Below, one piece after another: positions 45,700 to 56,794 of a DNA stretch of 64,000 bases (positions within the stretch are counted from its first letter, which is position 1; the number at the start of each line of letters is the position of its first letter). Under the pieces are notes generated by a model. That model was not told the DNA's origin. It did no database searches and saw only the letters and a list, made by a program, of their open reading frames with translations. Position numbers and translations under genes: made by a program. Origin of the DNA: an uncultured Pseudohongiella sp. (GTDB lineage Bacteria > Pseudomonadota > Gammaproteobacteria > Pseudomonadales > Pseudohongiellaceae); assembly GCA_965212375.1 (NCBI GenBank), contig OZ243108.1, positions 2,436,353-2,500,352 on the forward strand, written 5' to 3'.

Positions 45700-45722
45700 A
45701 TGAGTTGGGGACACTGACAACT

Positions 45723-46806
45723 CTTGGTTTCAAGTAATAAGTGCAATTTAATTAAGCAGCAAGTAAATCCACTCGCTGCCCCATAAATAATTCATTGGGG
45801 GACTTATTGCCTCGCGTTTTCCTGGGCCGATTATTCAATCTGCTCATTACCGCTTTGATCTGTTTATCGGTGACCTTGTTAAAATCTATGCCTTTAGGAA
45901 AGTACTGACGAATGAGACCGTTGGTATTTTCGTTTATTCCCCTTTCCCAGGAAGCATAAGGGTGAGCAAAATATATCTTTGCGTTCAATCCTTTGGCAAT
46001 GGCCTCATGTTTTATGAATTCGCGGCCATTATCAAACGTAATGGTTTTCACCCTTTCCTGTAGAGCTTTCATGTGTTTGACCGCGGCTTTGGCAAGTAAG
46101 TCAGGGCGTTTGCCAGAAAGGCGAACGATTACCGTGTAGAGAGTCTTGCGCTCAACCATCGTCAGAATGGCACTCTTGCGCCTATAACCCATGACGGTGT
46201 CACCTTCCCAATCACCGATTCTCGTGCGCCGATCTACTATTGCTGGCCGGTGTTCTATGCCCACCCTGCGCGGTATGCCAGTCCTTCGGTCGTTGTGGCC
46301 ATAGCGTTTCCTGTAAGGCCTCCTGGCTATACGAAGATGTTTGTAGAGCTCTCCACCTTCCGCTTTATCAGCGTAGATTAGCTGATACACAGTTTCGTGA
46401 TGCAGAGACACTTTTTTGTAGATTTTCAGGTAATCCACCGTCTGCTGGGGGCTCAGATCCTGCTCTATTAGCCTGACTATCCAAATCCAAATCTGCTCTG
46501 TCACTTTATAGGCTTTGTATGCCTCTCGCCGTCTTGTGACGCAGCGCCGATGGGCTCTGCTGGCTTCGTAACTCCTAGGACCACCGTTTCGGTGAAGCTC
46601 TCGACTAATCGTTGAAGGGCTCCTGTGTAAACAGTCAGCGATCTCTTTCTGGCTATGGCCTTCTTTCTTCATCGCGCAAATCTGGTATCGTTCAAATTCG
46701 GTCAGCTGTTTGTAGCTCATAAGGCATTTTCCTTTGGCGAGAAAAATGACGAACTATAGCAGCTGGCCGTCTTTCTCAGGAATTGCGCTTATTATCCGAA
46801 ACCAGG
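45723..46806 (-). mobile_element. IS30-family insertion sequence (1084 bp) with 3-bp target duplication ACT
   Basis: Imperfect 26-bp inverted repeats (CTTGGTTTCAAGTAATAAGTGCAATT versus CCTGGTTTCGGATAATAAGCGCAATT). ACT is present at 45720-45722 and 46807-46809. Removing the IS restores the sequence seen intact at 50928-50975. Confidence 0.85.
45752..46720 (-). CDS. IS30-family transposase
   Basis: 322-aa ORF with an N-terminal HTH (SQKEIADCLHRSPSTISRELHRN) and a DDE core. Confidence 0.9.
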   Translation of the reverse strand: MSYKQLTEFERYQICAMKKEGHSQKEIADCLHRSPSTISRELHRNGGPRSYEASRAHRRCVTRRREAYKAYKVTEQIWIWIVRLIEQDLSPQQTVDYLKIYKKVSLHHETVYQLIYADKAEGGELYKHLRIARRPYRKRYGHNDRRTGIPRRVGIEHRPAIVDRRTRIGDWEGDTVMGYRRKSAILTMVERKTLYTVIVRLSGKRPDLLAKAAVKHMKALQERVKTITFDNGREFIKHEAIAKGLNAKIYFAHPYASWERGINENTNGLIRQYFPKGIDFNKVTDKQIKAVMSRLNNRPRKTRGNKSPNELFMGQRVDLLAA

Positions 46807-46958
46807 ACTTAACAACTTAACCAGTGTGTCAGAACACAAAGCCCTGCGGGCTCCGCACGACCGGAGAGATTGATTCAGAATTTGGCTGAGCCGAATTCCT
46901 CACCCTTCGGACCACGCAGAAAGCGCACGGTCTGCGCCGCTGGCGCGGCTTTCGAACT
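46807..46958. repeat. dispersed copy of the tRNA-Arg-3'-end-like structured repeat (its first 21 bp are at 45702-45722, displaced by IS30)
   Basis: Aligns with 50941-51104 along its whole length. It contains GCACGACCGGAGAGATT (46855-46871), 16/17 identical to the 3' end of the tRNA-Arg gene. Confidence 0.85.
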
Positions 46959-47061
46959 CCCAACCAAAATGTGGGTACCCTGCATATTGCTGCAGACTCG
47001 ACAGCAACAACGGCAATCGGGGTGTGCATGGACATACTCACTCGCTGGATAGACAGGAATC

Positions 47062-47964
47062 TTAATCCACCTCGATGCACATCAGATCCTCGGCCACGGT
47101 GACCGGCCCCGTGTAGTATTCAGAGAGGATCGCCAGGTTCTCCGCTAGCTGCTCCGGCTCGGGGTTGGAGATGTGACTGACCACTACCTCACCGACTCCG
47201 GCTGCGGCAGCCATCTGACCCCAGACACTGGGTGTAGCATGCAGTTCCACCATCAATCCCGTGCTGTCTTCGTTGGCGGTCAGGTGAATGACCAGCACGT
47301 CGGCGCCGCTGGCGAAATCGATAAACGTGTCATCTGACCCGTTTTGATCGCTGGCGAAGACGATACTGGAATCGCCATGATCGATGCGATATCCGACGGT
47401 GGGTACATTGCCATGGGGCACGCCAGTACCGGTCACCCGTAATTCCCCGGATTCCCGGACTGCAGTCACCCTGCCGGAATTCACTGACACTTCCACGGCC
47501 CGGTAGTCGAGCCTGTCGCGCAGCACCGCAAACACCCCACCCGCCCCGAACAGATTCCGGGCATAAGCCTCGACACCCGGATAAATCCCTCCGGCCACTG
47601 GACCCGACAGGGTAAAAGTTCCCCCTACAGGCCACAGGATGGCAGGCAGCTCTGCAGAATGATCTGGATGAAAGTGGCTCAGGGCGATCAGGTCGATGTC
47701 ATTCAGATCGGCTCCGGACTGGTGAAACAGGTTCTTGCTGCCACCGCCCGCATCCACGAGGACTCGGCTGCGGCCGTCTACCCACAAGACGTAGGCACTC
47801 GATGCCCGTCCGTCCGAAGCGGCGGGCCCTCCCGACCCCAGGACCTGCAAATGCAGACCGGTGTCCTGGCAGACCCCATAGGCTTTCAGACCGAATGTGC
47901 TGGCTGCGCCCAACAGGACCAGGCCGATAATTGTCTGCTTACAAGGCATAGCATGCCCCTCCAA
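47062..47964 (-). CDS. secreted metallo-beta-lactamase-fold hydrolase
   Basis: 300-aa ORF with a signal peptide and the HxHxDH motif (HFHPDH). Confidence 0.8.
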   Translation of the reverse strand: MEGHAMPCKQTIIGLVLLGAASTFGLKAYGVCQDTGLHLQVLGSGGPAASDGRASSAYVLWVDGRSRVLVDAGGGSKNLFHQSGADLNDIDLIALSHFHPDHSAELPAILWPVGGTFTLSGPVAGGIYPGVEAYARNLFGAGGVFAVLRDRLDYRAVEVSVNSGRVTAVRESGELRVTGTGVPHGNVPTVGYRIDHGDSSIVFASDQNGSDDTFIDFASGADVLVIHLTANEDSTGLMVELHATPSVWGQMAAAAGVGEVVVSHISNPEPEQLAENLAILSEYYTGPVTVAEDLMCIEVD

Positions 47965-48023
47965 TGCGCGGTGGCCGCGACTGTCAGTGCCGCGGACACA
48001 ATCCAGCTACCGGAACTCGCAGC

Positions 48024-49235
48024 CTAGAGCAGCTCGCGCCCAAGGGTGCCACGTGGCACTCGATGTCCCACATCATGAATATAATCCGCGCCAATCGAAT
48101 CCATTGTCGGTGTTCCGCTGCTGCGCATGGCAATCAGCAGTTCGCGATTCAGCAGGTCCAGTACCCGCTCGACCCCGGCCTGGCCGAAGGCACCCAGCCC
48201 CCAACAGTAGGGTCTGCCAATGCCTACCGCATTCGCGCCCAGCGCGAGGGCCTTGTAGATGTCGGTGCCGCGGCGAAAGCCGCCATCGACGACGATGGGC
48301 ACGCGTCCGTCGACCACGCTGACGATCTCCGGCAGACACTCGATGGTCGCTCGCCCCGTATCAGTGGCACGTCCGCCGTGATTCGAGACCCAGACAGCGT
48401 CGGCGCCGTGCTCTACCGCGAGGGCGGCATCCTCCGCGACCTCGATCCCCTTGATGACGATCTTCATGTCGGTCACGTCCCTCATCCGGCCGATCACATC
48501 CCAGGACAACCCCGGATTCATCAGATTGACGCCGCGCATGTTGAGTCCCTCGAAGATCGGCTTCTGCTGGCCACGATGACAGCTCAGGCAATTACGCGAG
48601 TCTTCCCGCATCATTATCGATTGGGTCTCGGTGTTGCGTCCGGCCGGCAAATCAATGGTCAGGCAGACAGCCGTACAGCCGGCGGCCTCGGCGCGCTGCA
48701 GGATGGCGACCGTATAGTCCCAGCGGTCCGTGGGATAGAGTTGGTGCCAGATGGGTGCGCCTCTGGCCTCGGCAACTTGTTCAACCGGGGTGGAGGACTG
48801 CGTGGACAGCACCAGGTGATGGTCCTTGGTGGCAGCCGCCCGGGCTGTGCCCAGCTCCGCCTCGGCGTGATAGGCGCCCTGGCTGCCAACGGGACACAGA
48901 ATAATAGGTGAACTGGCCTGCGTACCCAGGATGTCGACCGTGGTGTCGGACTGACTCACATCCACCAGCCGCCGTGGCTTGATCTGGAAGCGTGTGAACC
49001 CCTCTCGATTGGCGCGCAGGGTCACATCACCATCCACCCCCGTGTTCAGGTAGCCCAAATGAGCCGGGGGAATCTTCGTGCTCGCCACCGCTTCCATCTC
49101 CCAGACGTTGATCACGTCACGGGGGTCGGTGAGGCGCTCGCCGAGCGTTTCTTCGACTTCCTGAGCAAAAGCGGAAAAACTGGTCAATATAGGGCTGGCA
49201 GCCAGAAATTTGAGGAGTTCTCGACGATTATTCAT
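48024..49235 (-). CDS. FMN-dependent alpha-hydroxy-acid dehydrogenase/oxidase family protein with Tat-type signal peptide
   Basis: 403-aa ORF with the N-terminus MNNRRELLKFLAASPILTSFSAFAQE (twin-arginine motif) and the family motif VSNHGGR. Confidence 0.8.
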   Translation of the reverse strand: MNNRRELLKFLAASPILTSFSAFAQEVEETLGERLTDPRDVINVWEMEAVASTKIPPAHLGYLNTGVDGDVTLRANREGFTRFQIKPRRLVDVSQSDTTVDILGTQASSPIILCPVGSQGAYHAEAELGTARAAATKDHHLVLSTQSSTPVEQVAEARGAPIWHQLYPTDRWDYTVAILQRAEAAGCTAVCLTIDLPAGRNTETQSIMMREDSRNCLSCHRGQQKPIFEGLNMRGVNLMNPGLSWDVIGRMRDVTDMKIVIKGIEVAEDAALAVEHGADAVWVSNHGGRATDTGRATIECLPEIVSVVDGRVPIVVDGGFRRGTDIYKALALGANAVGIGRPYCWGLGAFGQAGVERVLDLLNRELLIAMRSSGTPTMDSIGADYIHDVGHRVPRGTLGRELL

Positions 49236-49611
49236 GGGGTTTCCTGATTCGACTTGTGGGGTGACTGGTAGCAGGCACCAGCCAATTAACAGCTAAAAAC
49301 TAGCGTCAAGACCTGGCAATGTCCAGTGCAGTTGATCAGAGGAGCTATCCGGAGCCAGGTTCAAAGGGGTCGGTTTCATAAGGGGTCGGTTTCATAAGGG
49401 GCAGAGTGACTTGATCGGCACTTCGTTCCCGTTGATCCTCTGGTCAGCATACTCAAAAAGAGTTGACTGACTGACCGTAAGGAACACACTACCTTCATAC
49501 AATGTATTGTCACCGTTGAAGCCTCCACAGAGGCTGCCGGCACCTCCCGTTTCCAGGCGTGCCTGACGTGGCTGTACCTCATCAAGCAGGATTTGAAGAG
49601 AGAGACTGAAA

Positions 49612-50166
49612 TTGCCAAGGATTTGCGTGTTTGCCGGCTCCAGCAGCGGCAATAAGACTGCCTACCTGGACGTGGCGCAGGACTTGGGCCGGATACTGTC
49701 CGAGCACGGCTTCGGCGTCGTCTACGGCGGCGCCTCCATAGGCCTGATGGGGGCCATGGCCGATGCGGCTCTGACCGGCGGCGGCGAGGTGATCGGCGTC
49801 ATACCCCACTCCATCGCGGAAAGAGAACTGGCCCACAGCGGATTGACAGAACTGCATCTAGTCGCCTCCATGCACGAACGCAAGGCGATGATGGCAGAAT
49901 TGGCGGATGCCTTCATTGCCCTGCCGGGCGGTATCGGCACCCTGGAGGAAACCTTCGAGATCTGGACCTGGCGTCAGCTGGGAATTCACAGTAAGCCCAT
50001 CGGCATTCTCAACGCCCAGGGCTTCTATGACAGCCTGCTGAGCTTTCTTGATCAACTCGTGGAGGCAGAATTTGTCAGGCCAGCCAATCGCGAGGACCTG
50101 CTGGTCGAAACCACCGCCGAAGCTTTGATCAACGGGATTCTGACCTCTCTGCCTGGCTCTGACTGA
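49612..50166 (+). CDS. LOG family protein (TIGR00730 Rossmann fold, cytokinin riboside 5'-monophosphate phosphoribohydrolase-like)
   Basis: 184-aa ORF with the GGxxxGLMG and PGGxGTxEE motifs (ALPGGIGTLEE). Confidence 0.85.
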   Translation: MPRICVFAGSSSGNKTAYLDVAQDLGRILSEHGFGVVYGGASIGLMGAMADAALTGGGEVIGVIPHSIAERELAHSGLTELHLVASMHERKAMMAELADAFIALPGGIGTLEETFEIWTWRQLGIHSKPIGILNAQGFYDSLLSFLDQLVEAEFVRPANREDLLVETTAEALINGILTSLPGSD

Positions 50167-50358
50167 CGGCTTGCAAGCTACGAAGGCTATTACGAATACG
50201 CATGCATACTTCCCTGCAGCCAGGTGAATTCTTACAAGCAACATGCATGGTGATATTTGGGCCTGGTTGCCGATATTCGGCGGAACAGCTGAATGGCATC
50301 AAAACGGTGGACCCAAAGGGGTCAGGTCAACACTGACCTACTGCATGTTGTCACTAAT

Positions 50359-50784
50359 CTAGGCAGCCAGTTTAGTCAGTACTTCTGCAAGGTCCCGTAG
50401 ATTGAAGGGCTTTGTTAAATGACCGACCACTTTCAGTTGTAAGCCGACTCCCTGGAGCCGGGCCAGTTCCCTCTTACGCCGGGATTTCCCGCTAATAATG
50501 ATAATCCTTGCATCACAGCCATTTTCTGCAAGCAATTCAAGAAAGGCTAACCCCTCATCACCGTAACGCGAAGGCTCATCACCTTCAGCTGCGCTGAAAC
50601 CCAGGTCCAGGGTAATGACTGTCGGTTTGAACACGATTGCTGCCAACTCGGCGCCGTCCAAATCGCTGACCTGCATAATTTCGTAGCCGGCCTGCTTACC
50701 TGCTTCCTCTATAACCAGGGCCTCTACAGGCCCATCCTCGATTACGAGCAGCCTGGGGGCCTCATCCAGTGAAATATCGATCAT
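50359..50784 (-). CDS. stand-alone response-regulator receiver domain protein
   Basis: ATG at 50784 inside track ORF 50359..50817. Receiver motifs present (LLVIEDGP, VITLDLG, IIISG, LTKPF). Confidence 0.7.
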   Translation of the reverse strand: MIDISLDEAPRLLVIEDGPVEALVIEEAGKQAGYEIMQVSDLDGAELAAIVFKPTVITLDLGFSAAEGDEPSRYGDEGLAFLELLAENGCDARIIIISGKSRRKRELARLQGVGLQLKVVGHLTKPFNLRDLAEVLTKLAA

Positions 50785-50920
50785 TGGTGCTCTCAGTCGG
50801 CAAAGAACAGAAGCCAAAGGTGTTCTTCCGGTCCTGAATCTGGCTTCAGTCTTGTGAATTTAATAATGGTTTGCCAGAAAACTCTTACGGATTTCCTGGC
50901 GCTTTCCTTGAGCATTTTTT

Positions 50921-51520
50921 AGTTGAGGACACTGACAACTTAACAACTTAACAACTTAACAACTTAACCAGTATGTCAGTACAAGGAGCCCTACGGGCTC
51001 TGCACGCCCGGAGAGATTGATTCTGAATTTGGCTGAGCCAAAATCTTTACCTTTCGGGTCGCGCAAGAAGCGTGCGGTCTGCGCCGCTGGCACGGCTTTC
51101 GAACTGAGGAGTTCGAACCAAGTCCGCAAGGACTTACCAAACAAAAAAGGGAGCCTGTGAACATTCTTTCGGATCTGTGCGCGGGATCAGGAAGCCTTCG
51201 GCTTCCTCCGGAGAGAGTGATTCAGATTTTGGCTGAGCCAAAATCTTCACCCTGCGGGCCGCGCGGAAGGCGTGCGGTCTGCGCCGCTGGCGCGGCTTCC
51301 GAACTGAGGAGTTCGAACCAAGTCCGCAAGGACTTACCAAACAAAAAAGGGAGCCTGTGAACATTCTTTCGGATCTGTGCGCGGGATCAGGAAGCCTTCG
51401 GCTTCCTCCGGAGAGAGTGATTCAGATTTTGGCTGAGCCAAAATCTTCACCCTGCGGGCCGCGCGGAAGGCGCGCGGTCTGCGCCGCTGGCGCGGCTTTC
51501 GAACTGAGGAGTTCGAACCA
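50921..51520. repeat. array of three copies of a highly structured repeat with exact 200-bp period, adjacent to tRNA-Arg
   Basis: The cores at 51008-51120, 51208-51320 and 51408-51520 are near-identical. The linkers 51121-51207 and 51321-51407 are identical. The first copy is preceded by (TAACAACT)x4 and carries GCACGCCCGGAGAGATT (51002-51018), identical to tRNA gene positions 51579-51595. Confidence 0.9.
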
Positions 51521-51542
51521 ATTCTCCCCACATACCATCTAT

Positions 51543-51571
51543 AAAAAAGCCCTCACAAGGAGGGCTTTTTT
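51543..51571. terminator. bidirectional Rho-independent terminator
   Basis: Stem GCCCTC/GAGGGC (51549-51554 / 51560-51565) flanked by an A6 run upstream and a T6 run downstream. It lies directly 3' of the tRNA on the minus strand. Confidence 0.75.
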
Positions 51572-51576
51572 ATAGA

Positions 51577-51653
51577 TGGCACGCCCGGAGAGATTCGAAC
51601 TCCCGACCAACTGGTTCGAAGCCAGTTACTCTATCCAGCTGAGCTACGGGCGC
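51577..51653 (-). tRNA. tRNA-Arg (anticodon UCG)
   Basis: The minus strand reads GCGCCCGTAGCTCAGCTGGATAGAGTAACTGGCTTCGAACCAGTTGGTCGGGAGTTCGAATCTCTCCGGGCGTGCCA. It folds as a 77-nt cloverleaf with anticodon loop CTTCGAA, an encoded CCA and a G1-U72 wobble. Confidence 0.9.
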
Positions 51654-52075
51654 GTGATTTGGTACTTTTATGTTGTTGGTGCCTGCGGCACCTCGGAGAC
51701 ATCCGCCTCCGTTTCCCTGCCCGGCCAGCAACCCAAGCAAGGGGCGGAATTATAAAGGCTTACGCGCGAATTTCCTAATTCAGCGGGGAATCTGTTTGGT
51801 CGTAGGTACTGTACAGGGATTAGACAAGTATCCCTTCAAATTATTGGGATCTGTGTCAAAATTCCTACAATTTACTGGTGCTGGCCATTCACTTGGGGGC
51901 GAAGTTCGACTTATTCTATGGTCTTTGTTCGTCCGAATTCATGGAAGGAAGTCGGTAGTGGAGGTGTTGCCGCGCAGGCTTTCGCAGCGCCATTGCCCCC
52001 CACAGGTAGGGATAGTTCCCTGCTGACGGCCTCAAATCAGTGGCTTTCGGCACCCGGAGCCCGGCATTGACCTGC

Positions 52076-54349
52076 ATGAGACAAGTTCGATTGATCTACT
52101 TTTGTAGTGTTATTGCCTGCCTGCAAATTGCAGTCTCAGCATCTGCAGTCCTCGCGGCGGAACAGGAGCAATCAATTGACGCGCTGCTTGTATCTGGCAG
52201 TGGCGGCCTTGCTACCTGGACGCAGAACTACAACGAACAGCTGCGGAGTCTGCTCGGACCGGCGCTGAGCAGCAATGTCACTCCGGAATTCCTCCCCCTG
52301 ATAGATTCCAGTCCTGAAGATCGCGAATTGATTGCTCGCTCGCTGGCGCTCAAGCACAGCAACCGGGAGATAGACCTGGTAATTGCGGTTCTTATCGAAG
52401 CGAATTCCTTCATTCACGAGTACGGCGATTATTTTGCCCCGGATGCAACAGTCTTGCATGTCCTGCCCGGACCAGATATCGCCGAAAGCGCGGGCGATCG
52501 ACCCGATCGTGCAGTCCTGACCAGCGCCATCAACCTGGCCACTGCCAATACTATCGAACTGATCCCGCGATTGTTTCCTGACATGGAGCGAATCTACGTG
52601 GTAGGTGGTGTGGGAGAGGGTGACGCCAGCTACATGAGCCGCTTTCGCGAGGTAGCCGCGAATACGGAGTCGAACCTTGATTTTCAGTATCTGACCGGCT
52701 TGCCGCCGGATGACCTGGTGAATGAGCTCAACAGTGCGCCGGCCAACAGCGGGGTCATCATGACCATCTACGATCTGGACAACACCGGACAACTGCAACA
52801 AACCATGTCCGTGACTCGGCTGATGGTAGATAACATCGATTTACCGGTGTTCGCGATGAACGATACCCAACCACCGGCGGGCGCCACAGGGGGCAATGTC
52901 ACCACCACCGCCGCCTATGCCCGGTCAACCTACGAGCTGATCCAGCGCATCCTGGCCGACGAAATCCCAACCCAGCCAGTCACCGCCGGCACGGAATATA
53001 TGTTTAACGGCCAGCAACTGGATCGTTTCGATGTGAGCCGCAGTCGTTTGCCGGATGACAGCATTGTTATTAATGACCAGCCAAATCTGTGGCGCGACTA
53101 TCCGGGCTGGATCGCTCTGGGACTGGGCATTATTATCGCGCAGCTGGCCCTGATCGGCCTGATGCTGGAAGCCCGGCGTCGCAGCCGGGTAGCCGAAGAA
53201 GCGCTCCGCCATACCCAGAAAATGGAAGCGCTGGGCGATCTTGCCGGCGGGATCGCGCATGACTTCAACAACATCCTGATGGCCATCATGGCCAACGCGG
53301 AGCTGGCCAAAACCACGCTGAACGAGCCCCAAAAAGCCGATTCCCGGCTCAGCAATATTCTCTCCGCCAGCAACCGGGCCAAGGGCCTTATTTCCCAGAT
53401 TCTGTTGTTCAGTCGCCAGGCTGCGACCCAGTCCTTTGAAGAAACCGACCTGTCACCAACGCTTCAGGAGTCCGTTGACCAGATTCGCGCTTTTTTACCT
53501 CGCAGCTGCGAGGTAACCCTGGAATGCGATGCTGAACTTGCCCCGGTGCGCGCGGACACCAACCAGCTGCATCAGGCGTTCATGAATATCTGTATCAATG
53601 CCCAGCACGCCATGAACAATGAAGGGACGATCCACGTGACGGCCCGCAATGTGCAGATCGACTACGAACAGAAAATCTACGGACAGCACCTGCCAGCTGG
53701 CAACTACGTCGCCATTACGGTCAGCGATACCGGCAAGGGCATCGCGGACAAGGACCTGCATCATATATTCGAGCCCTTCTATTCCACCAAGCCCTCCGGC
53801 CGCGGCACCGGCCTGGGTCTTGCGCTGGTGTACCGCATTGTCCGTGCTCACTACGGCTTCATCGATGTGGAAACCAGGCCCGGCGAAGGCACCACGTTTA
53901 CGATTTATCTGACCGCCTCATCCCAACCGATGAGTCAGCTGGCCGGTACCCAGGATACAGATACCAGTGCTGGTCGCGGCCAGCGCATTATGCTGGTGGA
54001 TGACGATGACATGGTGCTGGATGCGACCGAGCGCATCCTGACGCGTAAAGGCTTCAGGGTTGATGCTTTTCGCAGCCCCCTGAAGGCTCTGGAAGCAGCA
54101 AAGAAAAACCCGCGGGCCTGGGATCTGGTGTTTACCGATTTGTCGATGCCGGAGATGGATGGCGTGCGGCTGGTCACCCAGATTCGTCAGTTACGGCCAG
54201 ATGTTCCGGTCATTCTCTATACCGGTTACCTGGATGCGGTTGAGTCCATCGAGATCGAGAATCTGCGTATTCTCAGCAAGCCCAGCCGGGTCGATGAGAT
54301 AGCCAGTGTCGTCAACGAGTGCCTGTCTGTATCCGAAAGCAGTTATTGA
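52076..54349 (+). CDS. hybrid sensor histidine kinase/response regulator with periplasmic ABC-substrate-binding-like sensor domain
   Basis: ATG at 52076 (track start is 52040). The periplasmic domain of about 330 aa is followed by a TM helix, a HisKA H-box (HDFNNIL), an HATPase domain (GxGxG) and a C-terminal receiver (DLSMPEMDG). Confidence 0.85.
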   Translation: MRQVRLIYFCSVIACLQIAVSASAVLAAEQEQSIDALLVSGSGGLATWTQNYNEQLRSLLGPALSSNVTPEFLPLIDSSPEDRELIARSLALKHSNREIDLVIAVLIEANSFIHEYGDYFAPDATVLHVLPGPDIAESAGDRPDRAVLTSAINLATANTIELIPRLFPDMERIYVVGGVGEGDASYMSRFREVAANTESNLDFQYLTGLPPDDLVNELNSAPANSGVIMTIYDLDNTGQLQQTMSVTRLMVDNIDLPVFAMNDTQPPAGATGGNVTTTAAYARSTYELIQRILADEIPTQPVTAGTEYMFNGQQLDRFDVSRSRLPDDSIVINDQPNLWRDYPGWIALGLGIIIAQLALIGLMLEARRRSRVAEEALRHTQKMEALGDLAGGIAHDFNNILMAIMANAELAKTTLNEPQKADSRLSNILSASNRAKGLISQILLFSRQAATQSFEETDLSPTLQESVDQIRAFLPRSCEVTLECDAELAPVRADTNQLHQAFMNICINAQHAMNNEGTIHVTARNVQIDYEQKIYGQHLPAGNYVAITVSDTGKGIADKDLHHIFEPFYSTKPSGRGTGLGLALVYRIVRAHYGFIDVETRPGEGTTFTIYLTASSQPMSQLAGTQDTDTSAGRGQRIMLVDDDDMVLDATERILTRKGFRVDAFRSPLKALEAAKKNPRAWDLVFTDLSMPEMDGVRLVTQIRQLRPDVPVILYTGYLDAVESIEIENLRILSKPSRVDEIASVVNECLSVSESSY

Positions 54350-54484
54350 GCGATCAATCGTCAAGCACCAGGACCGCCGCTCGCAGTTGCGAGCCGATTC
54401 GGTAAACTGGCTCGTCGAATCATGCTACCCTGCCCTGCCTGATGGTCAGCAAACTCCGGCCTTCACTAGCGAACATGACTGGCC

Positions 54485-56794
54485 ATGAATTCGATGCAGC
54501 AAGCCCAAACCCAGAAGGTACTGGTCTGCCCAAAAACGCTGCTGCGACCCTTCCTGCTCGTATTGCTGCTAACGGTGACCTGGGATTCTTATCTCGGCGC
54601 CCAGACCAGCAACGACTCAACACTGATCATCTATGGTACGGGCGGCATAACCAACTACGATCTGTCGTTTAACCAGGCTTTCCTGGATGCCCTGGGCCCC
54701 ACCCTCGGCGCTACCGCGGTTCCGGAAGTGATTAACCTGCATCTCGCCACGGAGCGGCAGCGCGCCAACTATGCCGAGTCATTGCGCATTAAATACGGCG
54801 ACAGCAACCTGCCCGTAGTGGTCACGTTATTCGCCGATGCCGAAGCATTCGTGTCTGACTATGGCGACGTTTTTGCACCGGATGCCGTCCACATTCATGT
54901 CTTGCCGGGCGAAAGCTTTGTCCTGGATGCTTCCCCGGAATCCGATGATGAGCAGCACTACAGTGTACCCAGCGTTATTCAATCAGCGGTGCGCGAAACC
55001 GCTGGCCTGATCAACAGGCTGTACCCGCAATTGGACACACTCTATGTGCTCAGCGGTGCAGGTTTTACTGATCGCAGCTACCTGGAGCGCTACCGGGTCA
55101 CGCTATCGGAGCTTGACCTGCCGTTTCAGATTGAATACCTGGTGGGCCTGCCGCTGTCGGAATTGCAGCGCCGCATCGGCGCCCTGTCTGGCAACAATGC
55201 CTTGCTCATGGCCACCTACGACGTGGACCGCGATGGCGTCCCTTCGACCACGCGCGGGGTGGCACGCACCCTGACTGACGAATTCAATATACCCCTGTTC
55301 GCCAATATCACCGAGCTGGTTGAGGTTGGCAGTGTGGGCGGCAGCATTACCCCCACCGCCAGCTACGCTCAGGCTGCTGCCACGCTGGTGAGCAGTGTCC
55401 TGGCAGGGACTCCCCCAGCGGCGCCAGTGATTGCCGAAACGCGATTCCAGTTCAACGGGGCCATGCTTGATCGTTTTCAGATTAATCGCGCTCTGCTGCC
55501 GCCCGGCAGCGAGATTGTCAACGATGTCCCCAATCTGTGGCGCGACTATGGCAACTGGATCGTGGTGGGGCTGGCGATTATTGTTGCGCAACTGGTATTG
55601 ATTTCACTGTTGCTGCTGGCGGTACGTCGCCGCAAGGCCGCGGAAGCGAAGCTGCTGGCCGTCAACAAGCTCGAGGCGCTGGGCAATCTGGCCGGTGGTA
55701 TCGCGCACGACTTCAACAACATCCTGATGGCGATGATGGCCAATGCCGAACTGGCCAGCCTTGACGCTGACAACGCCGACAAGGTGAAACCACGTCTCAG
55801 GCAATTGCTGCTGGCTGGCAATCGCGCCAAGGGGCTGGTAGCCCAGATCCTCATGTTCAGTCGCGACGCCTCTATCCAGCTCAATGAAGACGTGGACATG
55901 GTGCAGCTGGTCGGCGAGTCCATCGAACAGATTCAAAGCCTGATCAGCAACTCTTGTACAGTGTCCTGCGACTACGCCCTGGATGCGGCCTGGGTAAGGG
56001 GCGACCCCAATCAATTACATCAGGCCCTGATGAATATCTGCATCAACGCCAAACACGCCATGGAAGATGGCGGCAAACTACGGATCGAGGTGAAGGAAGA
56101 AACCATCGACGCGGCACAGCGAATTCACAACCAGATAATGCCGGCAGGCACCTACGTGAGCGTGCGCGTTAACGACACCGGCAAGGGGATTTCCCCCGAG
56201 CATCTGCCCCATATTTTCGAACCGTTCTACACCACCAAGCCATCCGGCAAGGGCACCGGTCTGGGTCTGGCCCTGGTGTATCGCATTATCAAGGCTCACG
56301 ATGGATATATTGATGTCAGCTCCAGCCCCGATGTGGGAACCACGTTCACGATTTACCTGAAACCGATAGCGCGACCGGAATCGACAGCTATTCCGGTACT
56401 GCAGGACAGCACGCCACGGGGTCACGGCGAACATATTCTGTTGGTGGACGATGACCAGATGGTGCTCGATACCAACCGCCAATGCCTGCAGCAACTAGGC
56501 TATCGCGTCACGGCATTTGGCAGCTCCCTTGATGCCCTGCACACCTTCAATGCTGACCCGCAGACGTTTGATCTGGTCTACACCGATCTGTCCATGCCGG
56601 AAATGGATGGTGCCCGGCTCGCGACGAATATCCGTCAACGCCGAGCTGATATCGGTATCGTGCTGAATACCGGCTACCTGGATGCAGTGGACAATGTCGA
56701 CATTGAGAACCTGCGCTTGATCAGCAAGCCCGCCGATATCAACCAGATTGCGGTGGCAGTTGCCGAGGTGCTGAGAAACTCGCCCGGGCACTGA
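54485..56794 (+). CDS. hybrid sensor histidine kinase/response regulator, paralogue of the preceding gene
   Basis: 769-aa ORF with the same architecture. Many blocks are identical to the upstream gene (NLWRDY, GGIAHDFNNILMA, HIFEPFY.TKPSG.GTGLGLALVYRI). Confidence 0.85.
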   Translation: MNSMQQAQTQKVLVCPKTLLRPFLLVLLLTVTWDSYLGAQTSNDSTLIIYGTGGITNYDLSFNQAFLDALGPTLGATAVPEVINLHLATERQRANYAESLRIKYGDSNLPVVVTLFADAEAFVSDYGDVFAPDAVHIHVLPGESFVLDASPESDDEQHYSVPSVIQSAVRETAGLINRLYPQLDTLYVLSGAGFTDRSYLERYRVTLSELDLPFQIEYLVGLPLSELQRRIGALSGNNALLMATYDVDRDGVPSTTRGVARTLTDEFNIPLFANITELVEVGSVGGSITPTASYAQAAATLVSSVLAGTPPAAPVIAETRFQFNGAMLDRFQINRALLPPGSEIVNDVPNLWRDYGNWIVVGLAIIVAQLVLISLLLLAVRRRKAAEAKLLAVNKLEALGNLAGGIAHDFNNILMAMMANAELASLDADNADKVKPRLRQLLLAGNRAKGLVAQILMFSRDASIQLNEDVDMVQLVGESIEQIQSLISNSCTVSCDYALDAAWVRGDPNQLHQALMNICINAKHAMEDGGKLRIEVKEETIDAAQRIHNQIMPAGTYVSVRVNDTGKGISPEHLPHIFEPFYTTKPSGKGTGLGLALVYRIIKAHDGYIDVSSSPDVGTTFTIYLKPIARPESTAIPVLQDSTPRGHGEHILLVDDDQMVLDTNRQCLQQLGYRVTAFGSSLDALHTFNADPQTFDLVYTDLSMPEMDGARLATNIRQRRADIGIVLNTGYLDAVDNVDIENLRLISKPADINQIAVAVAEVLRNSPGH

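Follow-up and report, generated by a model that had tools for sequence, protein, structure and literature searches.

The window analysed here is a stretch of 64,000 nucleotides from an uncultured Pseudohongiella sp. (assembly GCA_965212375.1, contig OZ243108.1, forward-strand positions 2,436,353 to 2,500,352), and the subject of this report is an array of three repeat units lying immediately 3' of its tRNA-Arg(UCG) gene, together with a fourth, dispersed unit 4 kb away. Each unit is a 3'-half fragment of tRNA-Arg whose T-loop is cut between G57 and A58 (TTCG/AATC, the slash marking the cut) and filled by a module of four hairpins. The units appear to be distant relatives of RtT (Rfam RF00391), the repeats linked to tyrT in Escherichia coli. 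Units were scored with two covariance models, R1, built from the core module alone, and R2, built from 17 marine tRNA-strand units only; sequences outside the window carry L numbers. The features of the locus, in window coordinates, are as follows.

45702-45722, plus strand: left part of the leader of copy 0 (repeat family, 95%; reconstruction)
45723-46806, minus strand: insertion sequence (IS) of the IS30 family (Pfam HTH_38, HTH_23 and rve; inverted repeats 21/28; target-site duplication ACT/ACT)
46860-46966, minus strand: dispersed RtT-like unit 0, module at 46872-46952 (R2 64.6 bits; R1 59.6 bits)
50921-51001, plus strand: array leader (Tandem Repeats Finder; sequence)
51007-51121, minus strand: RtT-like unit 1, distal, module at 51019-51099 (R2 73.1 bits; R1 53.6 bits)
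51121-51207, no strand: linker 1, 87 bp (identity to linker 2; comparison with L002)
51207-51321, minus strand: RtT-like unit 2, module at 51219-51299 (R2 83.9 bits; R1 74.2 bits)
51321-51407, no strand: linker 2, 87 bp (sequence comparison)
51407-51521, minus strand: RtT-like unit 3, nearest the tRNA (R2 87.1 bits; R1 76.2 bits for the module)
51506-51537, plus strand: decayed copy, in inverted orientation, of T-arm, acceptor 3' strand and CCA of the tRNA (GAGGAGTTCGAACCAATTCTCCCCACATACCA; sequence)
about 51537-51578: bidirectional intrinsic terminator made of an A-tract, a GCCCTC/GAGGGC hairpin and a T-tract (inverted repeat, 84% complementary; sequence)
51577-51653, minus strand: intact tRNA-Arg(UCG) (ARAGORN; Rfam tRNA model, 65.2 bits)

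Tandem Repeats Finder reports a period of 200 bp over 51008-51521 (2.6 copies, 95% matches, no indels), and a repeat search of the window finds a 152-nt segment in four copies, starting at 46807, 50954, 51154 and 51354. Whole units were duplicated recently, since the two linkers are identical at 87/87 positions. Linker 1 contains a GNRA-capped hairpin, a half-copy (CCAAACAAAAAAGGGAGCC) of the tRNA terminator of L002, a Pseudohongiella metagenome-assembled genome (MAG), and a UUCG-capped hairpin. The 17-mer GCACGCCCGGAGAGATT, the reverse complement of tRNA-Arg nucleotides 58-74, is found at 51579-51595 (the tRNA 3' end, minus strand) and as a perfect copy in the left flank of unit 1 (51002-51018), with 0 matches expected by chance, and recurs with one mismatch at 46855-46871. 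Units 0 and 1 thus carry tRNA nucleotides 58-74 (16-17/17), while units 2 and 3 retain a partial version, AATCACTCTCTCCGG, and CCA is absent. A strong terminator separates the tRNA from the array; it stands in the middle of an imperfect palindrome of 32 nt that extends into the tRNA 3' end, and the inverted copy at 51506-51537 is placed between it and the last module, with cognate analogues in L006, L037 and L089. The first-pass annotation had described repeats that are anchored to a tRNA, structured and similar to its 3' end, and it was right about the exact 200-bp period of three units beside tRNA-Arg(UCG), the identical linkers, both 17-mers and the bidirectional terminator facing the tRNA. 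It also held that the fourth copy is split by IS30: the IS30-family element is indeed there, but the split hits the leader and not the core.

On the plus strand of the window, a unit consists of the reverse complement of the tRNA from A58 to its 3' end (...GGAGAGATT), a core that begins with GATTC and ends with CTTT, and then CGAAC..., which represents T-loop nucleotides 53-57 in reverse complement. The two flanks of copy 0, with an insert of 81 nt between them, rebuild tRNA-Arg from about 43 to 57 (CGAACTCCCAACCAA, 16/17) and from 58 to 74 (GCACGACCGGAGAGATT, 46855-46871, 16/17), and unit 3 is composed of a pseudo T-loop 5' part, the four-hairpin module at 51419-51499 and AATCACTCTCTCCGG. The T-loop split, the wider family and the connection with RtT had all been missed in the first-pass annotation. 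Two motifs singled out at that stage find another explanation: the T-loop-like GAATC is the conserved end of the module abutting T-loop nucleotide A58, and the D-arm-like GCTCAGC is just the apex of hairpin 1, whose loop, TNA, is variable. The idea that the units are decayed tRNA pseudogenes is not supported, as the short flanks alone are tRNA-derived, the core of about 80 nt is an unrelated conserved module, and the only cloverleaf detected in the window with ARAGORN and the Rfam tRNA model is that of the real tRNA-Arg.

The conserved module measures 73-83 nt and comprises, on the strand antisense to the tRNA, GATTC, hairpin 1 (TTTGGCTNAGCCAAA), TCACCC, hairpin 2, hairpin 3, GT, hairpin 4 and TTT, with GATTC and TCACCC conserved and unpaired. 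Its ends (GATTC... and ...CTTT/TTGT) are not inverted repeats and are not accompanied by a target-site duplication. The collection of loci described below provided 85 unique modules (73-83 nt, with GATTC... and .../CGAAC as boundaries), of which 75 were aligned. Pairing was found in 94.7% of cells, versus 82% in shuffles and 32-47% when partners were slid; double-sided changes affected 13 of the 22 pairs and the covariation score was 0.308 versus 0.093, values reached by 0/500 shuffles. The four-hairpin structure is therefore strongly supported by covariation. The compensatory change previously pointed out in a 9-bp stem of the window copies, T-A to A-T, recurs throughout the family (column pair 10:26, AU 47 and UA 24). 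Watson-Crick pairs account for 93% of the pairing and G.U for 1-2% of cells on either strand: 23 G.U cells on the antisense strand versus 36 A.C cells (equivalent to G.U on the tRNA strand), or 14 and 16 once two edge pairs are set aside, and G.U has no clear preference for one strand over the other. Such near-exclusive Watson-Crick pairing is atypical of selected RNA helices and fits a structure that is read on DNA or on both strands. Some modules harbour a further insert, roughly 60-75 nt in length and with GACGAT(C) as its end (L004 7025-7090, L076 12768-13041, L121, L011 200-343), usually between hairpins 1 and 2, where it replaces CTCA, and in L011 between hairpins 3 and 4; this may be another small element, nested in the first.

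The family reaches well beyond this locus. A pattern scan of GTDB genomes located the module beside tRNA-Lys(UUU) in L001 and L005, tRNA-Ser(UGA) in L004 and L006 and tRNA-Arg(UCG) in L002, the carriers being Pseudomonadales and Pseudohongiella MAGs and each adjoining flank resembling its own tRNA; one further candidate, L003 (Acidimicrobiia), was discarded as a chance pattern match within a coding region. A scan of metagenomes yielded at least 120 loci, mostly marine. With R1, significant copies number about 180, spread over 99 sources that comprise Pseudohongiella-like genomes and metagenomes of marine origin, with scores of 53.6-76.2 bits on the four window copies. No module match was obtained in viral contigs or in phage or plasmid collections. 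The tRNAs served include Arg-UCG, -ACG, -CCU and -UCU, Lys-UUU, Ser-GGA, -GCU and -UGA, Gln, Gly and Pro, to which 5S rRNA must be added. Without exception (98/98), copies that lie within 700 nt of a tRNA gene are antisense to it. The left flank, on the 3' side of the tRNA, matches nucleotides 58-71 of the cognate tRNA at 9.1/14 positions and those of non-cognate tRNAs at 6.5/14, and is clearly specific to the neighbouring tRNA; in the right flank the cognate signal is weak (6.8/14 vs 6.0/14). The left flank ends with GATT in 87 of the 146 unique full-length copies and the right flank starts with CGAAC or T/CGAA in 95 of them, almost all the remaining ones abutting another module (CTTT/GATTC and similar) or lying in a 5S context.

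Three contexts can be distinguished. In the first, that of the window, the module lies downstream of an intact tRNA and its terminator, often with an inverted, degenerate copy of the tRNA 3' end between terminator and module. In the second, a further, promoter-bearing copy of the tRNA is intact up to G57 and is interrupted there by one or two modules (L014, L044, L052, L064, L075, L089, L097 and L108), the split falling at exactly 57/58 in L052, L089, L014 and L044. In the third, a duplicated 3' fragment of 5S, placed downstream of the 5S rRNA gene, holds the module (GGTCATAGT/module/CAGGCAT), as in L008 (722-797 and 937-1010), L015 (539-864) and L043 (5970-6047); these modules are sense to the 5S gene, opposite to the tRNA-linked copies. 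Modules can also yield spurious tRNA annotations: the tRNA-Pro(AGG) called by ARAGORN at 2675-2749 of L016 consists of part of a module fused to the 5' 57 nt that remain from a disrupted copy resembling tRNA-Arg(ACG).

Repeats of the RtT type, linked to tRNA genes, have been known since the 1970s from the tyrT literature, those of E. coli duplicating the tRNA-Tyr 3' end, and the rtT RNA is still without an established function. In the 178-bp repeat of E. coli tyrT, GGATGAGAAGCTTCGACCAAGGTTCGA (also given as AAGGTTCGA) is followed by a 75-nt insert of four hairpins and by AATCCTTCCCCCACCACCA, and the T-loop is split at or within 1 nt of position 57/58, in the same orientation as in the marine units. 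In the window, too, tandem units directly follow the 3' end of a tRNA gene, share its orientation and carry the 3' nucleotides of that tRNA from A58, and the unit architecture (GAUGAGAA..GGUUCG(A), four-hairpin insert, AAUCC..) can be aligned with that of the E. coli units (RF00391; rttR, tpr open reading frame (ORF)). The correspondence extends to the 5' part of a pseudo T-arm ending in GGTTCG(A), the module of about 75-80 nt, the AATCC that follows it with the tRNA's own 3' end, the motifs GAUGAGAA(C/G), CCCGAAGGG(U/C)GAG and CGCTGGCGC, and a segment in inverted orientation whose sequence complements T-stem and acceptor 3' strand. R2 matches exactly the four RtT units of E. coli, each over its full length and in register, with 13.5-14.9 bits (E from 3e-4 to 9e-4), the next-best match reaching 5.7 bits and the four window units 64.6-87.1 bits. 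At gathering thresholds, Rfam recovers only tRNA in the window. Below the gathering score of RF00391 (45 bits), this model matches 51410-51538 on the minus strand with 15.1 bits (E=6.3), L001 with 19.7 bits and, as the best relative, L088 with 29.5 bits, while the E. coli controls give 133-137 bits. From these sequence comparisons, the locus is classed as RtT-like, with the same architecture and probably homologous to RtT, without being a member by the Rfam criterion.

The differences from E. coli RtT are also clear. Hairpin 1 is AT-rich and 8-10 bp long here, whereas in E. coli it is short and GC-rich; a strong terminator stands between tRNA and repeat here and none does in E. coli; the 19-nt tRNA end of E. 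coli includes CCA, which is missing here, where the inner units keep 9-10 tRNA nucleotides; and the period is 200 bp instead of 178 bp, in a family that serves many tRNAs as well as 5S rRNA. On the minus strand the repetition generates ORFs of 62-76 amino acids that cross units (50956-51144, 51134-51364 and 51334-51531); they are reminiscent of the tpr ORF annotated in E. coli RtT and are probably spurious. A second annotated RNA, Aggregatibacter sRNA 22 (AaHKsRNA22, RF02902), shows the same order of hairpins on the tRNA strand, namely ACAAAACGC..GCGUUUUG, CGUU..AACG, GCCCC-AAA-GGGGC, a long AT-rich hairpin and GAGU..AAUC. Its model scores 38.0 bits on a type-B module of L001 (4817-4913) and 31.1 bits on L008, both below the gathering score of 39.8 bits, and leaves the window unmatched at E<=10. 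In the searchable literature we found no description of T-loop-split, tRNA-linked modules beyond RtT. Nor did we find there any account of repeats built around a module lodged at one T-loop phosphodiester, of a module serving many tRNAs and 5S rRNA across marine Gammaproteobacteria, or of the insertion-like polymorphism described next.

Comparison between loci reveals that the module is a discrete unit that is precisely gained or lost in one orientation, at the same phosphodiester of the TTCG/AA T-loop, at a site in 5S 3' fragments, or beside another module. Unit 2 of L004 holds a 77-nt module between GGCTT(T) and (T)CGAAC, a site that is uninterrupted in unit 2 of L006, and the filled and empty sites differ with a boundary ambiguity of 1 nt and no duplication. 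Two modules stand in L078 at a place occupied by a single one in L093, L025 and L122. Modules follow each other head-to-tail with zero spacer, up to five per run, or one is inserted at the end junction of another, with no duplication of the target; they lack terminal inverted repeats, and a target duplication is never longer than 1-2 nt. A miniature inverted-repeat transposable element (MITE) of the DDE type was discarded, given that the ends are not inverted repeats and there is no target-site duplication. A closer mechanistic analogy, and an analogy only, is provided by non-autonomous IS200/IS605 elements (PATEs) and REP/RAYT systems, which are short, devoid of ORFs and terminal inverted repeats, leave no target duplication, have hairpins conserved in structure and not in sequence, and insert in a specific orientation beside a short target that survives, giving head-to-tail arrays. 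The module shares the absence of inverted repeats and target duplication, the hairpin-rich ends and the orientation-specific insertion at a fixed short target. It differs in having four dissimilar hairpins instead of similar left-end and right-end ones, with cleavage sites 3-6 nt from the hairpins, and in that no Y1/HUH transposase was identified when the ORFs of the fetched loci were clustered.

Taken together, the data lead us to propose that the locus is an RtT-like, tRNA-linked repeat organized around a site- and orientation-specific insertion module, a statement to which, as a whole, we assign a probability of about 0.6. The two parts are not equally firm: the architecture and the RtT-like classification, taken alone, are very likely correct, while for the mobility of the module the odds are about even. 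The module would spread as a non-autonomous insertion element, specific for site and orientation, with a trans-acting enzyme reading its hairpins. This enzyme would most likely be a recogniser of single-stranded DNA hairpins, similar to the Y1/HUH transposases of IS200/IS605 or REP elements, although a site-specific recombinase might act instead. A single-stranded-DNA mechanism is favoured by the lack of target duplication and inverted repeats, the retention of the target, the head-to-tail arrays and the size of 77 nt; a double-stranded circle is disfavoured because 77 bp would be implausibly small. After insertion in a redundant tRNA copy, the disrupted copy would decay until its flanks alone survive, and whole 200-bp units would then be amplified by unequal recombination. 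Any RNA produced would presumably come from the tRNA strand, through read-through or from tRNA promoters, and, if E. coli rtT is a guide, might have its tRNA-like ends trimmed. A role as RNA layered on a mobile origin is possible.

Several observations weigh against this proposal. With respect to RtT, the core-only model R1 does not detect the E. coli repeats, the similarity stays below the Rfam gathering score, and the score of R2 comes partly from the flanks derived from the T-loop. With respect to mobility, clustering of ORFs across the fetched loci disclosed no recurrent transposase or recombinase family and no mobilising enzyme, and the one-module difference between L078 and L093, occurring in tandem modules, could also have arisen by homologous deletion. 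A mobile module does not account for the partial duplications of the tRNA 3' end or for the inverted copy on the terminator side, and L089, with a perfect duplicate of nucleotides 58-76 and the terminator, fits an integrative mini-element better. Finally, the strong covariation and the conserved unpaired motifs fit a functional RNA equally well, and hairpin 1 leans toward G.U on the tRNA strand in its outer pairs (26 vs 2 cells).

These last points are shared with the explanation that survives best among the alternatives, in which the units, as genes or as co-transcribed modules, encode a structured tRNA-linked RNA of the RtT type, with selection on its structure acting on the RNA. Such an RNA would be a minihelix mimicking the T-arm and acceptor end of the neighbouring tRNA, with the four-hairpin insert replacing the T-loop and the array providing dosage; it could act, for instance, as a decoy or substrate for proteins that process or bind tRNA, or by modulating the stringent response, a role reportedly proposed for rtT. 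Both E. coli rtT and Aggregatibacter sRNA22 are annotated as RNAs on the tRNA strand, the strand on which the A.C mispairs of hairpin 1 become G.U; the split copies in L052 and L089 are under tRNA promoters, there is no terminator between tRNA-Lys and the module in L001 and L005, and the window array folds with z-scores of -15.8 (plus strand) and -7.8 (minus strand). In the window, however, the strong terminator cuts the array off from its tRNA, and the scarcity of G.U on either strand, the visible decay of the tRNA-like flanks and inverted copies and the placing of UNCG and GNRA loops on the strand opposite to the known RtT RNA speak against this explanation. Modules antisense to tRNAs and sense to 5S rRNA have no single transcriptional relationship to their neighbours, and they occur inside disrupted genes, head-to-tail without spacer, and as precise indels. 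We regard the RNA explanation as rather unlikely but viable. A tandem family of tRNA-like small RNAs had been among the first readings of this locus and came closest, in that the units do resemble E. coli RtT RNA; what it did not capture is the behaviour at the DNA level. The precise single-module indels, the head-to-tail arrays, the opposite orientation at 5S and tRNA genes and the near-exclusive Watson-Crick pairing suggest that the core is primarily an insertion module.

Other RNA-based ideas did not hold. A CsrB/RsmZ-type GGA sponge or Qrr-like tandem small RNAs, suggested by the GGA motifs and the tandem layout, found no support in Rfam; neither a sigma-54 nor a GacA box is present, and a sigma-70 scan gave background values (3 sites vs 3.1 expected). 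An RNA antisense to the tRNA, as the UNCG and GNRA loops might indicate, was rejected because the known RtT RNA of E. coli carries its loops in the same orientation but lies on the other strand, and because the balance of G.U and A.C does not point to the antisense strand. A resemblance to a retroviral primer-binding site fails with the absence of a complement of CCA, and a hammerhead-like reading of CUGAGGAG / GAUGAGAAC lacks a core.

The surroundings of the array bear on a further explanation, that the units are scars of the attL/attR type left by integrase-bearing islands or miniature integrative elements, with a T-loop crossover and the module as an attP arm. Sequence 51010-55998 of the window is 87% identical to L002, and the synteny breaks exactly at the distal end of the array (window 51010, L002 6302). 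On the other side, a 4.1-kb segment (46.9-50.9 kb) is bracketed by the two leader-plus-module copies, 86% identical to each other, and contains genes for an MBL-fold protein, a flavin mononucleotide (FMN)-dependent dehydrogenase, a LOG-family protein and a receiver domain, without an integrase. The T-loop target, the direct repeats of the tRNA 3' end and the synteny breakpoint are all reminiscent of tRNA att sites with a T-loop crossover, and the 3' unit of L089, ending in perfect nucleotides 58-76 and terminator, is what would be expected if an element brought in a substitute 3' end. A 404-amino-acid tyrosine recombinase (Phage_integrase plus a SAM-like N-terminal domain) is encoded 2.7-3.9 kb from the arrays at all five tRNA-Ser(UGA) loci (L004 2967-4181, L006 690-1904, L080, L121 and L126) and not at other tRNA loci.

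Against such scars, Pfam searches on the ORFs of 44.2-54.3 kb detected an IS30 DDE transposase as the only mobility gene and no integrase in 45.7-51.6 kb, and integrases are missing from most of the roughly 120 loci, just as viral contigs, phages and plasmids are without a match. In contrast to att sites, the repeat block is interrupted, being split at 57/58 by a module conserved across tRNAs; the units are of about 80-200 bp, and one and the same module is associated with no fewer than 10 different tRNAs and also uses 5S rRNA fragments. Lone 77-nt modules inserted head-to-tail are too small for a double-stranded circle. The junctions share at most 1-2 nt and misfit the 6-7-bp T-loop overlap of an integrase crossover, which did not reproduce the junctions observed when tried as a model. 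The serial att scars put forward in the first-pass annotation are thus improbable as an explanation of this array. As for ordinary local tandem duplication of tRNA-flanking DNA, with chance tRNA similarity and slippage, the exact 200-bp period and identical linkers do denote a recent duplication of units, but a core conserved with covariation in hundreds of loci, at different tRNAs and in different organisms, refutes it and makes it extremely improbable.

The IS30-family insertion is a secondary event in the (ACAACTTA)n leader of copy 0. Its transposase ORF (45752-46720, minus strand, 322 amino acids) lies in an element with a 3-bp target duplication (ACT) that interrupts this leader and leaves the core untouched; the leader continues beyond it at 46807-46859, and removing the IS in silico makes it collinear with the leader of the array. 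The array leader consists of a GGACACTG...CAGTGTC hairpin with (ACAACTTA)x4.2 in its loop, followed by a small GAGCCC-UACG-GGGCUC hairpin. The motif GGACACTNACAACTTAACAAC, a CACTG...CAGTG hairpin with a variable number of ACAACTTA octamers in the loop (window 50921-50985), adjoins modules in five other loci: L007 (165-185, minus), L008 (1036-1056, plus), L047 (890-910, minus), L066 (5382-5402, plus) and L084 (301-321, minus). It stands 60-110 nt to the 5' (GATTC) side of the module in four of these five contigs and just past the module 3' end in L008. This motif might represent another repeat family or else a regulatory site; no convincing promoter was seen. Within the 4.1-kb segment, a 16-bp tandem repeat (AAGGGGTCGGTTTCAT, 2.7 copies, 49360-49401) occupies the intergenic region upstream of the LOG-family gene, and a similar sequence, AAAGGGGTCGGAGGCATTTATT, occurs after the modules in L008.

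These results suggest that the phenomenon first met at tyrT is neither an oddity of E. coli nor bound to one tRNA: the same kind of structured module occupies the same T-loop position beside many tRNAs, and is associated with 5S rRNA too, in marine Gammaproteobacteria. Its behaviour as an insertion unit offers a testable hypothesis for the origin of RtT-type RNAs, accounts for some of the tRNA 'pseudogenes', the miscalled tRNAs and the assembly-breaking repeats met with at tRNA loci, and points toward a putative enzyme with specificity for T-loop DNA. A bolder version, which we hold tentatively and at somewhat less than even odds, is that the module represents a new class of tiny mobile element, of about 77 nt, homing, with a single orientation and no target duplication, to one phosphodiester of the T-loop (TTCG/AA) and to a site in the 5S 3' end, and moving probably as single-stranded DNA, or even via RNA, with RtT and sRNA22 as domesticated or fossil members. 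If this were true, the nearly 50-year-old curiosity of tyrT would be the trace left by a selfish element, spread through the Gammaproteobacteria, that remodels stable-RNA loci.

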